From positions 42,995 to 106,994 of the forward strand of contig JAJLLC010000059.1 of the NCBI GenBank assembly GCA_033838285.1: DNA of 64,000 bases, given 5' to 3'. How positions within the stretch are numbered: position 1 is the first letter of the stretch; the number at the start of each line of letters is the position of its first letter. The notes beneath the pieces are model-generated. The model was not told the DNA's origin, did not search any database, and saw nothing but the letters and a program-made list of their open reading frames with translations. The stretch is from Pseudomonadaceae bacterium (GTDB lineage: Bacteria; Pseudomonadota; Gammaproteobacteria; Pseudomonadales; Pseudomonadaceae). Position numbers and translations under genes: made by a program. Positions 50,180 to 55,823 of this stretch are shown in pieces.

Positions 50180-51985
50180 ATGTCCCATCGCGGAATCGGC
50201 TGGACCCTGGGCGACTGGCAACAGGCCTATCGCAGCCAGCAACTGCAGCCCGGCGTGCTGGCCGAGCTGCTCGCCGAGCTGGACGGCGACGATCCTGCCT
50301 GGATCGCCCTGGCCAGCCCGGCGCAGCTGCAGGCCCAGCTCGACGCCCTGGCCGAACGCCTGGCCGAAGCCTCCGGCGATCTGGCCAGGCTGCCGCTGTA
50401 TGGCGTGCCCTTCGCCATCAAGGACAATATCGACGCCGCCGGCTGGCCGACCACCGCCGCCTGCCCCGAGTTCTCCTACACGGCCGCGGCCGACGCCAGT
50501 GTGGTCGACCGCCTGCGCGCCGCCGGCGCCATTCTCATCGGCAAGACCAACCTCGACCAGTTCGCCACCGGCCTGGTCGGCACCCGCTCGCCCTATGGCG
50601 CGGTGCCCAACAGCTTCGATCCGGCCTACGTCAGCGGCGGCTCCAGCTCCGGCTCCGCCAGCGTGGTGGCGCGCGGCCTGGTGCCCTTCGCCCTGGGTAC
50701 CGACACCGCCGGCTCCGGCCGGGTGCCGGCCGGCTTCAACAACATAGTCGGGCTCAAGCCGACCAGAGGCTGGCTGTCCACCCGCGGCCTGGTGCCAGCC
50801 TGCCGCAGCCTGGACTGCATCTCGGTGTTCGCCCTGAGCGTGGCCGACGCCCTGGCCGTGGCCAACATCGCCGGCGGCTACGATGCCGACGACGCCTACA
50901 GCCGCCAGAACCCGGGCAGCGCCAGGGTCGGCATGCCGGCCCGGCCGCGCCTGGCCGTACCGACCGCGCCCGAATTCTTCGGCGACGCGCAGAACCAGGC
51001 GGCGTTCGAGCAGGCCCTGGGCAAGCTGCGCGAGCTGGGCGCCGAGCTGGTGGAGATCGACTTCGCACCCTTCCGTGAGCTGGCCGAGCAGCTCTACCAG
51101 GGCTCCTGGGTCGCCGAGCGCACGGTGGCGGTGACGGGCGTCGAGCCGGCGCACATCGACCCGGTGGTGCGCGGCATCATCGACAACGGCCACCGCTACA
51201 GCGCCTGCGACGCCTACCGGGCCGAGTACATCCGCGCCGAGCTGAGCAGAAAGATCAACGACACCCTGGCCGGCTTCGACGCCCTGGTGGTACCGACCTC
51301 GCCGACCCTGCGCACCCTGGCCGAGATGCAGGCCGAGCCGGTGCTGTTCAACAGCCAGTTCGGCACCTACACCAACTTCACCAACCTCGCCGACCTCTGC
51401 GCCCTGGCCGTGCCCGCCGGATTCCGCGGCGACGGTCTGCCGGCCGGCATCACCCTGCTCGCCCCGGCCTGGCACGACCAGGCATTGGCCGCCTTCGGTC
51501 GCCGCTGGCAGGACTTCCTCACCCTGCCGCTGGGCGCCACCGGCCGTGCCCTGCCGCCGCAGCCCGCCACACCTCAGGCGCCAGGCTGTGTGCGCGTGGC
51601 GGTGGTCGGCGCGCACCTCACCGGCATGCCGCTGAACTTCCAGCTCACCAGTCGCGACGCCGTGCTGGTCGAACAGACCACCAGCAGCGCCGACTACCGC
51701 CTCTACGCCCTGCCCGGCACCGTGCCGCCCAAGCCTGGCCTGGCACGGGTGGCCGAGGACGGCGCCGAGATCATCGTCGAGCTGTGGGACGTGCCGCAGG
51801 CGCGCTTCGGCGAGTTCGTCGCCGAGATCCCGCCACCGCTGGGCATCGGCAACCTGCAGCTGGCCGACGGCCGCTGGGTCAAGGGCTTTATCTGCGAGCC
51901 CTACGCGCTGGCCGGTGCCCGCGATATCACCGCCTTCGGCGGCTGGCGCGCCTTTATTGCCAGCCTGCAAGCAGCCAAGAACTGA
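50180..51985 (+). CDS. atzF: Allophanate hydrolase
   Basis: Amidase signature KDNID, GKTNLDQFATGL, GGSSSGS, GTDTAGSGRVPA; C-terminal VVGAHL.GMPLN domain. Confidence 0.95.
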   Translation: MSHRGIGWTLGDWQQAYRSQQLQPGVLAELLAELDGDDPAWIALASPAQLQAQLDALAERLAEASGDLARLPLYGVPFAIKDNIDAAGWPTTAACPEFSYTAAADASVVDRLRAAGAILIGKTNLDQFATGLVGTRSPYGAVPNSFDPAYVSGGSSSGSASVVARGLVPFALGTDTAGSGRVPAGFNNIVGLKPTRGWLSTRGLVPACRSLDCISVFALSVADALAVANIAGGYDADDAYSRQNPGSARVGMPARPRLAVPTAPEFFGDAQNQAAFEQALGKLRELGAELVEIDFAPFRELAEQLYQGSWVAERTVAVTGVEPAHIDPVVRGIIDNGHRYSACDAYRAEYIRAELSRKINDTLAGFDALVVPTSPTLRTLAEMQAEPVLFNSQFGTYTNFTNLADLCALAVPAGFRGDGLPAGITLLAPAWHDQALAAFGRRWQDFLTLPLGATGRALPPQPATPQAPGCVRVAVVGAHLTGMPLNFQLTSRDAVLVEQTTSSADYRLYALPGTVPPKPGLARVAEDGAEIIVELWDVPQARFGEFVAEIPPPLGIGNLQLADGRWVKGFICEPYALAGARDITAFGGWRAFIASLQAAKN

Positions 51986-51989
51986 AGAC

Positions 51990-52060
51990 GTAGGGTGGAT
52001 GGCCGCAGCCATCCACCACTGGACAGCTGGTGGAAAGCGCCTGGCGTTTCTCCACCCTAC
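51990..52060. repeat. GTAG-type REP inverted doublet (REPIN-like)
   Basis: GTAGGGTGGATGGC-CGCA-GCCATCCACC ... GGTGGAAAGCGCCTGGCGTTTCTCCACCCTAC. Confidence 0.85.
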
Positions 52061-52075
52061 GAGGAGGGAACGACC

Positions 52076-52201
52076 GTGTTCAACACCGTACTGATTGCGA
52101 ACAGAGGCGACCAGCCGCAAAGCGGCGCAGCGACGAAGTCAAAGTGCCGGGTGGGCGCAGCCCGCCGCGGCGATCTCGCCACGGAGGCCACTCATGTTTA
52201 G
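52076..52201 (+). CDS. 41-aa leader ORF beginning with a copy of the urea carboxylase N-terminus
   Basis: GAGGAGG RBS, GTG start, MFNTVLIANRGD...; TAG stop lies just inside the uca start region. Confidence 0.6.
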   Translation: MFNTVLIANRGDQPQSGAATKSKCRVGAARRGDLATEATHV

Positions 52202-55200
52202 TACCGTTCTCATTGCCAACCGTGGCGAGATCGCCGTCCGCGCCATCCGCACCCTCAAGCGCCTCGGCGTGCAGAGCGTGGCCGTGTACTCCGACGCCGA
52301 CCGCAACGCCCAGCACGTACGCGATGCCGATGTGGCCATCGCCCTGGGTGGCGACAAGCCGGCCGACAGCTACCTGCGCATCGACAAGATCCTCGCCGCC
52401 GCCAGGGAAACCGGCGCCCAGGCCATCTACCCCGGCTACGGCTTCCTCTCCGAGAGCGCCGAGTTCGCCGAGGCCTGCGAGGCCGCCGGCATCGCCTTCG
52501 TCGGCCCGACGCCTGCGCAGATCCGCGAGTTCGGCCTCAAGCACCGCGCCCGCGAACTGGCCGCCGAGGCCCGGGTGCCGATGGCGCCGGGTACTGGCCT
52601 GCTGCACAGCCTGGACGAGGCGCTGCAGGCGGCCGAAAGCATCGGCTACCCGGTGATGCTGAAGACCACCGCCGGCGGCGGCGGCATCGGCCTGACCCGC
52701 TGCAGCGATGCCGAAGCCCTGGCCAGCGCCTATGACAGCGTCAAGCGCATGGGCGAGCAGTTCTTCAGCGACGCCGGGGTGTTTCTAGAGCGTTTCGTCG
52801 ACCAGGCCCGGCATGTCGAGGTGCAGATCTTCGGCGACGGCGCCGGCCGCGTGGTCGCCCTCGGCGAGCGCGACTGCTCGCTGCAGCGGCGCAACCAGAA
52901 GGTGGTCGAGGAAACCCCGGCGCCCAACCTACCGCAGGCCACCCGCGAGCGTCTGCATGCCGCCGCCGTGCAGCTCGGCGAGTCGGTGAGCTACCGCAGC
53001 GCCGGCACCGTGGAATTCATCTACGACGCCGCCCGCGACGACTTCTACTTCCTCGAGGTGAACACCCGCCTGCAGGTCGAGCACCCGGTCACCGAGATGG
53101 TCACCGGCCTCGACCTGATCGAATGCATGCTGCGCGTGGCCGCCGGCGACGCCCTGGACTGGGCCGCCCTCAACCGCGCCCCGCAGGGCGCCGCCATCGA
53201 AGTGCGCATTTACGCCGAAGACCCGCTGAAGAACTTTCAGCCCAGCCCCGGCGTGCTCACCGAAGTGCACTTCCCCGCAGGCGTGCGCGTCGACGGCTGG
53301 GTCAGCACCGGGAGCGAGGTGTCGGCCTTCTACGACCCGATGATCGCCAAGCTGATCGTCCACGGCACCGACCGCAGCGAGGCCATCGCCAGGCTGCGCG
53401 CCGCGCTGGGCGAGACCCGCCTGCACGGCATCGCCAGCAACCTCGACTACCTGCGCCAGGTGGTGGCCGACCAACGCTTCGCCCAGGGCCGGGTGTGGAC
53501 CCGCCTGCTCGACGACTTCGCCTACCGGGCCAGCACGATCGAGGTGCTCGAGCCGGGCACCCACTCCAGCGTACAGGACTACCCCGGCCGCCTCGGCTAC
53601 TGGGACATCGGCGTGCCGCCCTCCGGGCCGATGGACAACTTCGCCTTCCGCCTGGCCAACCGCATCGTCGGTAACCACCCCAGCGCCGCCGGCCTGGAGT
53701 TCACCCTGCAGGGCCCGACCCTGCGCTTCCATTGCGACGCGCTGATCGCCCTGACCGGCGCCGACTGCCCGGCCACCCTGGACGGCGAGCCGGTGGCCTA
53801 CTGGCAGCCGGTCGCGGTCAGGGCCGGCCAGCTGCTCAGGCTCGGCCGCGCCAGCAGCGGCTGCCGCACCTACCTGGCGGTGCGCAACGGCCTGGACGTG
53901 CCGCTCTACCTGGGCAGCCGCTCCACCTTCGCCCTCGGCCAGTTCGGCGGCCATGCCGGGCGCACCCTGCGCACCGCCGACATGCTGGCCATCTCCCAGC
54001 CCGAACTGGCCGCCTGCACCACCCCGGCGCCGCTGGCGCCACCGCAGGCCGTGCACCCCAGCCTGATCCCGGTCTACGGCAATACCTGGGACATCGGCGT
54101 GCTCTACGGCCCGCACGGCGCGCCGGACTTCTTCACGGCCGAGTCGATCGAGGCGTTCTTCGCTGCCGAGTGGGAGGTGCACTACAACTCCAACCGCCTC
54201 GGCGTGCGCCTGTCCGGGCCCAAGCCGAGCTGGACCCGCGCCAACGGCGGCGAGGCCGGCCTGCACCCGTCCAACGTGCACGACTGCGAATACGCCATCG
54301 GTTCGATCAACTTCACCGGCGACTTCCCGGTGATCCTCACCCAGGACGGCCCCAGCCTCGGTGGCTTCGTCTGCCCGGTGACCATCGCCAAGGCCGAGCT
54401 GTGGAAGGTCGGTCAGGTCAAACCCGGCGACAAGCTGCGCTTCCACCCCATCGGCTTCCAGCAGGCACAGAGCCTGGAACAGGCCCAGCTGGGCAGCATC
54501 GAGGCGCTGGCGGCGATCCGCGCGGTCAGCCTGCCCGCCCCCGTCCTGCAGCCGACCACCACCGCCTCGGCCACCGTGCTGGCCGAGCTGGCGGCCGAGG
54601 GCAACCGCCCCAGGGTGGTCTATCGCCAGGCCGGCGATGCCTACATCCTGCTGGAGTACGGCGACAACGTGCTCGACCTGGCCCTGCGCCTGCGCGTGCA
54701 CCTGCTGATGGAGGCGCTCAAGGCCGAGCCGCTGGCCGGGCTTGAGGAGCTGGCGCCGGGCGTGCGCTCGCTGCAGCTGCGCTACGACAGCCGCGTGCTG
54801 CACCAGCAGGCGCTGCTCGCCCATCTGCTGCAGCTGGAGCAGCGCCTCGGCGACGTCAGCCGGCTCAAGGTGCCGACCCGCATCGTCCATCTGCCGATGG
54901 CCTTCGAGGACAGCGCCACCCTCGGCGCCGTCACCCGCTACCGCGAGACGGTACGCAGCGAGGCGCCCTGGCTGCCGAACAACGTCGACTTCCTGCAGCG
55001 CATCAACGGCCTGGCCAGCCGCGACGAGGTGAAGGACATCCTGTTCGACGCCAGCTACCTGATCCTCGGCCTCGGCGACGTCTACCTCGACGCGCCCTGC
55101 GCCGTGCCGCTGGACCCGCGGCATCGCCTGCTCAGCTCCAAGTACAACCCGGCGCGCACCTACACCGCCGAAGGCACCGTGGGCATCGGCGGCATGTACA

Positions 55201-55823
55201 TGTGCATCTACGGCATGGACTCGCCCGGCGGCTACCAGCTGGTCGGGCGCACCCTGCCGATCTGGAACAAGTTCGTGAAGAACGCCCAGTTCGAGAATGG
55301 CGAGCCCTGGCTGCTGCGCTTCTTCGACCAGGTGCGCTTCTACCCGGTCGACGAGGCCGAGCTGGACGAATTCCGCGAGGCCTTCCGCGAGGGCCGCGCG
55401 CAGATCCGCATCGAGCAGGGCGAGTTCGACTTCGCCGAGTACAACCGCTTCCTCGCCGACAATGCCGCCGCTATCGCCGCCTTCCAGGCCAGGCAGAAGG
55501 CCGCCTTCGACGCCGAGGTGCAACTCTGGCGCGACGACGACCCGAGCGCTGCCGCGCCCCTGGCCGCCGTCGGCGAGGAGGACGACGACCTCGACGGCCA
55601 CCTGGTCAGCGCCGACATGTGCGGCAGCGTGTGGAAGGTGCTGGTCGAGCCTGGCCAGCGCGTCGAGGCCGGCATGCCGCTGCTGGTGGTCGAGGCGATG
55701 AAGATGGAGCTGGCGGTCACCGCGCCGGTGGCCGGCATCGTCAAGTCGGTGCGCTGCGCACCGGGCAAGGCGGTGACCCCGGGCGACGCCCTGCTCCTGC
55801 TCGACGCGGTGGAGGTGGCCTGA
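52194..55823 (+). CDS. uca: Urea carboxylase (BC-CT-BCCP)
   Basis: [11 protein letters not shown] domain, GVPPSGPMD, HPSNVHD, KYNPAR, EAMKM; GGAGG RBS. Confidence 0.95.
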   Translation: MFSTVLIANRGEIAVRAIRTLKRLGVQSVAVYSDADRNAQHVRDADVAIALGGDKPADSYLRIDKILAAARETGAQAIYPGYGFLSESAEFAEACEAAGIAFVGPTPAQIREFGLKHRARELAAEARVPMAPGTGLLHSLDEALQAAESIGYPVMLKTTAGGGGIGLTRCSDAEALASAYDSVKRMGEQFFSDAGVFLERFVDQARHVEVQIFGDGAGRVVALGERDCSLQRRNQKVVEETPAPNLPQATRERLHAAAVQLGESVSYRSAGTVEFIYDAARDDFYFLEVNTRLQVEHPVTEMVTGLDLIECMLRVAAGDALDWAALNRAPQGAAIEVRIYAEDPLKNFQPSPGVLTEVHFPAGVRVDGWVSTGSEVSAFYDPMIAKLIVHGTDRSEAIARLRAALGETRLHGIASNLDYLRQVVADQRFAQGRVWTRLLDDFAYRASTIEVLEPGTHSSVQDYPGRLGYWDIGVPPSGPMDNFAFRLANRIVGNHPSAAGLEFTLQGPTLRFHCDALIALTGADCPATLDGEPVAYWQPVAVRAGQLLRLGRASSGCRTYLAVRNGLDVPLYLGSRSTFALGQFGGHAGRTLRTADMLAISQPELAACTTPAPLAPPQAVHPSLIPVYGNTWDIGVLYGPHGAPDFFTAESIEAFFAAEWEVHYNSNRLGVRLSGPKPSWTRANGGEAGLHPSNVHDCEYAIGSINFTGDFPVILTQDGPSLGGFVCPVTIAKAELWKVGQVKPGDKLRFHPIGFQQAQSLEQAQLGSIEALAAIRAVSLPAPVLQPTTTASATVLAELAAEGNRPRVVYRQAGDAYILLEYGDNVLDLALRLRVHLLMEALKAEPLAGLEELAPGVRSLQLRYDSRVLHQQALLAHLLQLEQRLGDVSRLKVPTRIVHLPMAFEDSATLGAVTRYRETVRSEAPWLPNNVDFLQRINGLASRDEVKDILFDASYLILGLGDVYLDAPCAVPLDPRHRLLSSKYNPARTYTAEGTVGIGGMYMCIYGMDSPGGYQLVGRTLPIWNKFVKNAQFENGEPWLLRFFDQVRFYPVDEAELDEFREAFREGRAQIRIEQGEFDFAEYNRFLADNAAAIAAFQARQKAAFDAEVQLWRDDDPSAAAPLAAVGEEDDDLDGHLVSADMCGSVWKVLVEPGQRVEAGMPLLVVEAMKMELAVTAPVAGIVKSVRCAPGKAVTPGDALLLLDAVEVA

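Follow-up and report, generated by a model that had tools for sequence, protein, structure and literature searches.

A urea carboxylase gene with a leader and a second start

The subject of this report is a short structured segment, here called the cassette, at the 5' end of the urea carboxylase gene (uca) in a stretch of 64,000 nucleotides (nt) from a Pseudomonadaceae bacterium (GenBank assembly GCA_033838285.1, contig JAJLLC010000059.1, positions 42,995 to 106,994 of the forward strand). This whole stretch is referred to as the window, and positions count from its first letter. The source is a draft assembly of 64 contigs that is 86.7% complete. The ATG of uca at 52194 lies 118 nt 3' of a GTG at 52076 that opens a leader open reading frame (ORF), and both starts are followed by a copy of the same N-terminal coding sequence (Table 1). 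The two copies (52076-52110 and 52194-52228) are identical at 26 of 35 nt, and their differences are synonymous except for the start codon and one Asn/Ser exchange. The leader stop codon overlaps the new start region, where the leader frame reads CAT GTT TAG, and it is supplied by ATGTTTAG at the head of copy 2.

Table 1. Features at the 5' end of uca and in its vicinity, in window positions.
Feature	Position	Strand	Remarks
Allophanate hydrolase ORF	50180-51985	+	Upstream of uca
Resident (ancestral) uca Shine-Dalgarno sequence, GAGGAGG	52061-52067	+	Serves the leader ORF now; 8 nt before GTG 52076
Leader ORF	52076-52201	+	41 codons, GTG start, first twelve residues MFNTVLIANRGD, TAG stop at 52199-52201
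Copy 1	52076-52110	+	Resident start codon and first 11 codons, MFNTVLIANRG + GA; severed from the gene by the insertion
Cassette core, 83 nt	52111-52193	+	Hairpin 1, conserved block, hairpin 2, antisense arm, new Shine-Dalgarno sequence and spacer
Hairpin 1, GCCGC AAA GCGGC	52114-52126	+	RNA fold; covariation
Most conserved block of the canonical cassette type, CGCAGCG-R-CG-M-AG-Y-CAAAKTGC	52126-52147	+	Exact-pattern scan
3-bp mini-hairpin inside the conserved block	52132-52140	+	
Hairpin 2, GGTGGGC GCA GCCCGCC	52150-52166	+	RNA fold; covariation
Antisense arm	52168-52184	+	Exact reverse complement of 52220-52236; shares its last two bases with the head of the new Shine-Dalgarno sequence
New Shine-Dalgarno sequence, GGAGG	52183-52187	+	6 nt 5' of ATG 52194; half buried in the clamp
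Copy 2	52194-52228	+	Functional Uca start and first 11 codons, MFSTVLIANRG + GA
Urea carboxylase gene (cassette host)	52194-55823	+	TIGR02712 equivalog, 1964.7 bits, residues 2-1203
Clamp 3' arm	52220-52236	+	uca N-R-G-E-I-A codons, centred on the insertion junction

A repeat finder reports 52168-52184 and 52220-52236 as a 17-nt inverted repeat with 100% complementarity and 35 nt between its arms, and RNA folding returns this clamp together with the hairpins at 52114-52126 and 52150-52166. The z-score of the fold is -5.4 for 51986-52260 and -3.2 for 52061-52245, and the R1 model scores 112.9 bits on the window over 52130-52241. The ribosome-binding site (RBS), the GTG leader, the spacing of the two starts, the repeats, the clamp and the two hairpins had been pointed out in a first-pass annotation of the window, and all of them are present in its sequence. 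The same annotation had observed that accC has the motif and lacks the leader. This holds for the assembly as a whole, a search of which gave a single cassette copy: the target motif is there in accC and in the other biotin-carboxylase paralogues, and no cassette was found in them. Neither a sigma-70-type promoter-like site nor an intrinsic terminator was found in or around the cassette.

An insertion into an ancestral gene start

Orthologues of uca from a sample of 400 genomes of the genus (n = 18) fall into seven that are filled and 11 that are empty. In three species of the genus (G022, G014 and G004), the upstream copy of uca continues directly into the enzyme-coding sequence, and the alignment gap against the window is a clean 118 columns. 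The RBS context found upstream of the leader in the window lies, in G022 and G014, immediately 5' of the uninterrupted uca start. Because the empty orthologues begin directly at the leader start, this start is the resident uca start, and window segment 52111-52228, or an equivalent register within the 35-nt repeat, comprises the 118 nt that were added.

The site is also empty in the sister species of the window (G274), which is 92% identical and joined to it with a branch support of 96/99. Its native gene contains the rare codon run AAC AGA GGC, as does copy 1 of the window, with CGT standing in copy 2. On the simplest reading of these sequences, copy 1 is resident and copy 2 arrived with the cassette; loss by microhomology would be the alternative. 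Conservation of the N-terminal third positions of copy 2 as an imported block was not seen in uca. In a gene tree of the 18 taxa, at least four changes of state are required, three of them across well-supported branches.

The body of the window's uca is closest to that of G274, yet its spacer and RBS are of the type found in G019, G022 and G014, with G274 belonging to the type of G271 and G410 (L256-L273). This mismatch between gene body and upstream region suggests recombination breakpoints near the start of uca. The spacer between the allophanate hydrolase ORF and uca is occupied by a palindrome resembling repetitive extragenic palindromic (REP) sequences (51989-52061, CGTAGGGTGGA ... TCCACCCTACG) with an inner 10-bp hairpin at 51994-52017. 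It is found at the same place in G019, G022 and G014, and sequences matching its arms occur at other loci of this genome and of related ones. About 150 nt 5' of the empty uca start of G410 (L266), we observed a 38-nt perfect palindrome made of two near-consensus Tn5 mosaic ends (CTGTCTCTTATACAC...GTGTATAAGAGACAG); in this public assembly, it resembles an artefact of library adapters or a scar left by a transposon.

A family of cassettes at one codon of biotin-carboxylase genes

The structure is not restricted to the strain from which the window derives. A search with the 83-nt core returned copies in six other species of the genus that are 83-91% identical, and in one genome of the genus, an accB-accC type gene holds a second copy at this same codon. 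An exact-pattern scan with the most conserved 22 nt, using one genome per species, gave 82 loci, 81 of which are real. A second scan demanded only an arm and its target 25-50 nt apart, and yielded at least 119 loci. Its pattern restricted the Glu column (Y in the arm, R in the target) and left the third-position columns of Gly and Arg as N, so that complementarity at the latter two was not imposed by the scan. Combined, these searches yielded at least 151 non-identical copies in 146 contigs, among them complete genomes and type strains; the first-pass annotation had suggested looking for a second N-terminal copy and an antisense arm at biotin-carboxylase genes, and this is what was found. The cassette occurs at the same codon in well over a hundred other bacterial species.

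The insertion point lies after the Gly codon of the motif M-x-x-x-x-L-I-A-N-R-G-E in genes with a biotin-carboxylase domain. Among the copies listed, the hosts are 15 urea carboxylase genes, 28 accC-like genes and 100 genes of the acyl-CoA carboxylase alpha type encoding 664-692 amino acids; one accC-like host that was checked reaches 746 bits on TIGR00514 and is a bona fide accC. Carriers in the Burkholderiales include Variovorax, Polaromonas, Acidovorax, Hydrogenophaga, Rhodoferax, Rhizobacter, Thauera, Azoarcus, Gallionella, Methylophilaceae and others; further carriers are Pseudomonas, Ectopseudomonas, Phytopseudomonas and one Marinobacterium. Cultured carriers are available in Pseudomonas flexibilis ATCC 29606, Ectopseudomonas guguanensis JCM 18416, Variovorax boronicumulans and Curvibacter gracilis ATCC BAA-807. 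The inserts are 107-139 nt long, mostly 115-124 nt.

Double tandem cassettes are present in at least seven loci (L054, L060, L068, L091, L096, L097 and L127), and triple tandem cassettes stand 5' of an acyl-CoA carboxylase alpha gene in two metagenome-assembled genomes (MAGs) of Giesbergeria (L105 and L087). In the latter, the resident first copy encodes MSFSKILIANRG and the later copies MFKKIL or MYKKIL; this difference means that the restart copies did not arise by duplication of the resident start. In some loci, the second copy has clearly been imported (MSFSKIL versus MFKKIL). In Variovorax, single genomes (G429, G441 and G460; L238-L247) harbor as many as three or four cassettes, which differ in type and are spread over three different carboxylase genes, and in L245 hairpin 2 is doubled within one cassette. 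A Rubrivivax MAG (L156) has an arm, a Shine-Dalgarno sequence and a start at approximately 531-597 of the locus, before a carboxylase gene, with no recognisable first copy or hairpin core; it may represent a decayed cassette or an ancestral form. Two candidates were discarded: a match on a viral contig proved to be a chance match within a phage gene, and carriage by phages was rejected with it; L103 (Caulobacterales) is likewise a chance match and not a cassette.

When run against the window, Rfam 15 gave only chance matches to microRNA models, far below the gathering scores, and six loci with other cassette types gave no match at E<=0.1. A full-text literature search, whose coverage is incomplete, found no description of the cassette. 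The GeneTack collection of translational coupling contains a "biotin carboxylase" cluster, and the table row devoted to it could not be tied to the cassette (PMC3711429).

Anatomy and covarying structure

Every copy shows the parts in one fixed order. On the 5' side, the resident start leads into roughly 11 codons with GGN G(A) at their end; two to four hairpins, a short CA-A/C-AT-T/C-GC motif and hairpin 2 come next. On the 3' side come an arm of 15-19 nt that is antisense to the N-R-G-E-I-A codons, GGAG, a spacer of 6-8 nt and the new start with 11 codons. A Shine-Dalgarno sequence of the GGAG type is found at the equivalent place across the cassette alignments. The 3' half alone is shared by all copies, whereas at least four versions of the 5' half exist (GAC CAG CC...; GA AAAC GGCC...; G GTCGCGCC...; GAC AAC GGCC...), with hairpin 1 and the mini-hairpin being replaced in types II-IV, and in every cassette type the arm is centred exactly on the insertion junction. 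The G-E-I-A coding stretch at the junction (52224-52235 in the window, with the same codons in all biotin-carboxylase genes) contains the quasi-palindrome GGCGA-GA-TCGCC, and the cassette junction coincides with its centre, the arm and the direct copy of the target differing in the central dinucleotide only.

The covariation of the 17-bp stem that the first-pass annotation had proposed to look for is present. In 77 canonical copies, 95.9% of the cells are paired, versus 28-41% when the partners are slid by 1-3 columns, and 305 cells have changed on both sides, a number that none of 500 shuffles reached. With all types included (96 copies), 95.4% are paired and 316 cells have changed on both sides. 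The arm follows the third codon positions of its target for Gly (AU 38, GC 35, UA 11), Arg (GC 64, AU 11, CG 9) and Glu (UA 73, CG 19), and it also covaries with the first bases of the next codon, which is specific to the paralogue; the arm tracks the synonymous state of its target. The other helices covary as well. Hairpin 1 has compensatory changes in all three aligned pairs (for example, CG to UA in eight sequences), the R and Y positions of the mini-hairpin in the conserved block vary together (GC 45, AU 31, GU 1), and hairpin 2 exhibits changes on both sides in all six pairs (for example, CG 37, GC 31 and UA 4 at pair 86-94). A partial sigma-54-like TGGCAC was noticed by eye, and not searched for, in hairpin 2 of some beta-proteobacterial copies; it is not conserved elsewhere.

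Compared with third codon positions nearby, the core changes at about one-tenth of the rate (2/83 versus 33/100 and 1/80 versus 34/100 in two comparisons), which reflects either real constraint or recent spread. A pairing of copy 1 with the arm as an alternative structure was considered and rejected, since copy 1 does not follow copy 2 at the third positions of the Gly and Arg codons.

Leader frame, overlapping stop and decay of copy 1

Frame statistics rely on the 146 of the 151 copies that possess an identifiable first start and an open leader. In 131 of them the distance from start to start is 1 mod 3 (lengths of 115, 118, 121, 124, 127, 130 and 139 nt), and cassettes differ in length by multiples of three. 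In 119 of the 146 copies, the leader stop starts 5 nt into the second start (ATGTTTRR), and most of the others place it between 19 nt upstream of this start and 8 nt into it. The stop-making ATGTTTRR, or a stop triplet at +5, is a property of the second copies (122/146) far more than of the first copies (53/146), as is TTT at codon 2 (124/146 versus 60/146). In uca, the native His at the third codon has been exchanged for Glu, Asn, Lys, Ser or Asp depending on the lineage, and each exchange yields TGA, TAA or TAG in the leader frame.

The tail of the leader that is encoded by the core lacks codon periodicity (entropy of 0.92, 0.74 and 0.75 by codon position), and the leader ORF has no protein family match; a function of the tail peptide was rejected on these grounds. 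Because the tail has no codon periodicity, the constraint acts on RNA or DNA and on the open frame, and not on the peptide. Equivalents of the leader are occasionally annotated elsewhere as a hypothetical protein of 41 amino acids.

Copy 1, in contrast to this tail, is coding-like (entropy of 0.46, 0.21 and 1.32 by codon position). Its codons differ from those of copy 2 by 249 synonymous and 53 non-synonymous changes, 22 of the latter at the stop-making codon. Replacements are found in copy 1 at positions that are invariant in real enzymes (N to H, S or T; R to C; G to S; A to V or T). The synonymous sites of copy 1 in Variovorax switch between a native-like state and the state of copy 2, the copies of L049 differ by two non-synonymous changes only, and L066 is half converted. 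Judged from these sequences, frequent conversion from copy 2, and not selection on the peptide, probably accounts for the coding-like look of copy 1.

Patchy distribution and turnover

The cassette is present in 49 of 148 Variovorax genomes (33%) with one to four copies each, in four of 150 genomes (2.7%) of an even sample of the order, with one cassette, and in seven of the 400 genomes of the window's own genus. Cassettes cluster by host taxon more than by host gene; the copies in Phytopseudomonas accC, for instance, group with those in Pseudomonas uca (Shimodaira-Hasegawa-like approximate likelihood ratio test of 91, on a short alignment). Within Variovorax they form gene-specific lineages: a cassette in orthologous genes is retained across many species, with core and flank distances roughly correlated. 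One carboxylase gene of this genus is occupied by the canonical type in some species, whereas in others its cassette has a different 5' half. When an empty allele of another Variovorax gene was compared with 13 filled ones, divergence amounted to 0.28 per site in the 27 nt 3' of the junction versus 0.09-0.13 elsewhere. The target reads GAG AT(C/T) GCT in both empty Variovorax alleles seen and GAA ATC GCC in all filled ones. A Y1 (HUH) transposase (PF01797), the partner to be expected for IS200/IS605-derived or RAYT-mobilised hairpin elements, is encoded by 142 of the 148 Variovorax genomes, compared with the 49 that have a cassette, and it does not discriminate between them either way.

Proposed mechanism and its alternatives

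We favour, with a probability of roughly 0.6, the reading that the cassette is a structured insert which restarts its host gene through leader coupling and spreads by recombination between coding repeats. The original RBS, start and first 11 codons of the gene have become the head of the leader ORF. Ribosomes would load at the resident RBS and read the leader through the hairpins and the 5' arm of the clamp, unwinding both. Termination would occur at UAG 52199-52201, which leaves the new Shine-Dalgarno sequence and AUG just behind the ribosomes, and translation would resume at AUG 52194, so that full-length Uca could be made under the original translation signals despite its severed head. In cells in which the leader is not translated, the clamp would tie up two bases of the Shine-Dalgarno sequence and codons 9-14. 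The spacing of 1 mod 3 and the stop at the new start are what favours coupling of termination and reinitiation over bypass or RNA excision. The translational-coupling switch put forward in the first-pass annotation hence gains comparative support, with frame and overlapping stop being kept in 119-131 of the 146 copies and the clamp covarying.

On evolutionary time scales that are short, the cassette would be gained and lost. It would spread among orthologues, and rarely among paralogues, by recombination through the conserved flanking coding repeats (gap repair or copy choice); tandem arrays would stem from unequal exchange, and loss from exchange between the two N-terminal copies. This route is favoured because no enzyme is encoded, copy numbers are tiny and the lineages are largely gene-specific. 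The cassette may be retained as selfish, neutral or useful DNA.

Several points weigh against this reading. Gain and loss are indistinguishable at most nodes of the uca tree, and no clean recombination mosaic was found 3' of the window's cassette. Leader translation and reinitiation are argued from sequence statistics. The clamp occludes the initiation region in part, with the AUG and most of the Shine-Dalgarno sequence located in the 35-nt loop, and it may hinder direct initiation weakly. Covariation is by itself no proof of a role of the RNA because the arms could also be kept perfect by templated correction of a quasi-palindrome at replication, and not by selection. Plain recombination of a neutral insert fails to explain the slow change of the core, which calls for a host function or for selection at the level of the element. 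Hairpins 1 and 2 are dispensable for coupling, and their strong conservation is not explained by the reading that we favour; it therefore keeps alive two other readings, a regulatory role for the host and, at lower odds, guide-based homing.

In the former, the cassette would be a cis-regulatory leader that benefits the host: its hairpins 1 and 2 and conserved block would serve as the binding site of a protein, small RNA or ligand, or set the speed of the ribosome, the clamp would tune the restart, and the device would merely be copied between paralogues by recombination. Strong conservation of the core relative to flanking synonymous sites, covariation in all helices, maintenance in orthologues across many Variovorax species and occurrence in the essential accC gene speak in its favor. 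Yet a very patchy occurrence (33% of Variovorax, 2.7% of the order sample, seven of 18 uca orthologues and an empty sister), double and triple tandem copies that are hard to account for as regulation, the lack of any Rfam family match, and a 5' half that differs between types and hence offers no common aptamer leave us with a possibility clearly less probable than restart coupled to recombination. The other reading takes the 17-19-nt arm as a guide that pairs, as DNA or RNA, with the ANRGE site of an empty gene, insertion or template switching being carried out by a host enzyme or by the cassette's own folded nucleic acid. The exact centring of the arm on the junction in every cassette type, the position of this junction in the middle of a natural quasi-palindrome, the jumps between paralogues, the tandem arrays that resemble re-insertion and a core as conserved as a recognition or catalytic module would be are all compatible with it. 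Against this stand the lack of an associated enzyme, the presence of the Y1 (HUH) transposase in Variovorax regardless of the cassette, copy numbers of 0-4 per genome that are always found in biotin-carboxylase genes, and the lack of cassettes on viral contigs; unequal crossing-over between N-terminal copies explains the tandem arrays equally well, and the gene-specific lineages of Variovorax argue against frequent jumps within genomes. That the cassette is a new kind of mobile DNA, a protein-free homing element of about 118 nt with its arm serving, over 17-19 nt, as the guide to the best-conserved coding motif in a superfamily of enzymes, is in our judgment unlikely, and we are just as doubtful that such an element brings along its own restart module (Shine-Dalgarno sequence, ATG, 11 codons and overlapping stop) which makes insertion into an essential gene such as accC survivable. 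The tiny site-specific element envisaged by the first-pass annotation is thus borne out as far as an insertion that restores the gene start and is gained and lost (empty sister, occupied paralogues, tandem arrays), whereas active site-specific transposition finds no support.

A further proposal had been that programmed bypass or excision of RNA joins the matched GGC GA sites, so that the enzyme is made from the first start. The matched Gly codons and direct repeats (52106-52110 and 52224-52228) and the still coding-like copy 1 would suit it, but a spacing of 1 mod 3 and a conserved stop at +5 are meaningless under either process, no stop follows the take-off codon, a Shine-Dalgarno sequence and start codon of its own are conserved at copy 2 in the copies aligned, and copy 1 is altered in many copies at positions that are catalytically invariant in real biotin carboxylases. 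We regard it as very improbable. Still more remote is a duplication private to this strain or an artefact of assembly: the genome is a draft, yet homologous cassettes with covariation are present in 146 independent contigs, some of them from complete genomes and type strains.

Implications

The cassette represents a sizeable undescribed family that would combine a leader-coupled restart with an insertion that restores the end of a gene. A small insert that carries no enzyme sits in the most conserved stretch of an essential enzyme family, accC included, and it may survive there because it brings along a complete translational restart; it would then be a natural, portable "split-and-restart" module. 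Its coming and going between sister species offers a handle on recombination between orthologues and paralogues. Should the arm prove to be a guide, it would define a new class of targeted mobile DNA, and should the clamp or the hairpins respond to a signal, they would constitute an unrecognised control point for acetyl-CoA, methylcrotonyl-/propionyl-CoA and urea carboxylases. For genome annotation, the true start is the second ATG; a leader of this kind may be misread as the gene start, as a frameshifted pseudogene or as a hypothetical protein.

Comparison with known systems

Like REP sequences and the hairpin-forming elements built from them (REPINs), and like miniature inverted-repeat transposable elements (MITEs), the cassette is small, GC-rich, hairpin-forming and non-coding. 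Unlike these, it has neither terminal inverted repeats nor a fixed short target duplication nor dispersed copies. Its ends read GA|CCAGCC and ...GGCGA|GATC, and the only long inverted repeat consists of the internal arm and the flank; the flanking repeats are about 35 nt long with mostly synonymous differences; and there is one copy here and 0-4 per Variovorax genome, all in biotin-carboxylase genes. The Rickettsia palindromic elements (RPEs) are read in frame within the host protein and occur in tens of copies at many unrelated sites with no target specificity. The cassette shares with them that a protein-free, hairpin-rich insert of about 100-150 nt is tolerated in coding genes and is patchy among close relatives; in contrast to RPEs, it is out of frame, restarts the gene, and occupies, with 0-4 copies per genome, one codon of biotin-carboxylase genes among the matches listed.

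Gene 60 of phage T4 contains a coding gap of 50 nt with matched GGA codons, a stop right after the take-off codon, a nascent-peptide signal and no start codon at the landing site, and its bypass insert is thought to travel within a mobile cassette. The element described here resembles it in being a short insert with matched Gly codons and a hairpin and a Shine-Dalgarno-like sequence before the resume site. It differs in that its gap is an ORF with a conserved frame and that a proper Shine-Dalgarno sequence and ATG would restart translation; there is neither a stop after the take-off codon nor an untranslated gap, as GGC is followed by GAC CAG and the gap frame is open. Coupling of a leader or an upstream cistron to a downstream start that is masked by a hairpin is known from erm-type leaders, from coat-replicase or lysis coupling in phage MS2 and from coupled ribosomal-protein operons. 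As in these systems, an upstream ORF has its own Shine-Dalgarno sequence, its stop lies a few nt from the downstream start, and a stem covers part of the initiation region. Unlike them, the head of the leader copies the N-terminus of the regulated protein, the arm is antisense to codons 9-14 and not to the Shine-Dalgarno sequence and AUG alone, and the device as a whole is inserted DNA, which one sister species has and another lacks and which is common to several paralogous gene families. To our knowledge, leader-coupled, hairpin-masked starts are not known as a portable insertion that copies a protein's own N-terminus.

The nearest functional analogues are integrative elements at prfC and dusA. 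The integrative and conjugative element (ICE) SXT at prfC and the islands and prophages at dusA insert into the 5' end of the gene and supply a new N-terminus (bioRxiv 10.1101/2021.06.18.448947). The cassette has in common with them the insertion within the first codons, a replacement 5' coding sequence of the same length, a native start stranded upstream and a gene that remains functional. These elements, however, measure 20-100 kb and bring a tyrosine integrase, an excision factor and a new promoter, whereas the cassette of about 118 nt encodes no enzyme; the leader is the only ORF of the 118-nt insert, which has no site-specific recombinase of its own. Unlike the prfC and dusA elements, the cassette would keep the native RBS in use, and the stranded start would serve as a leader that is coupled to the new one.

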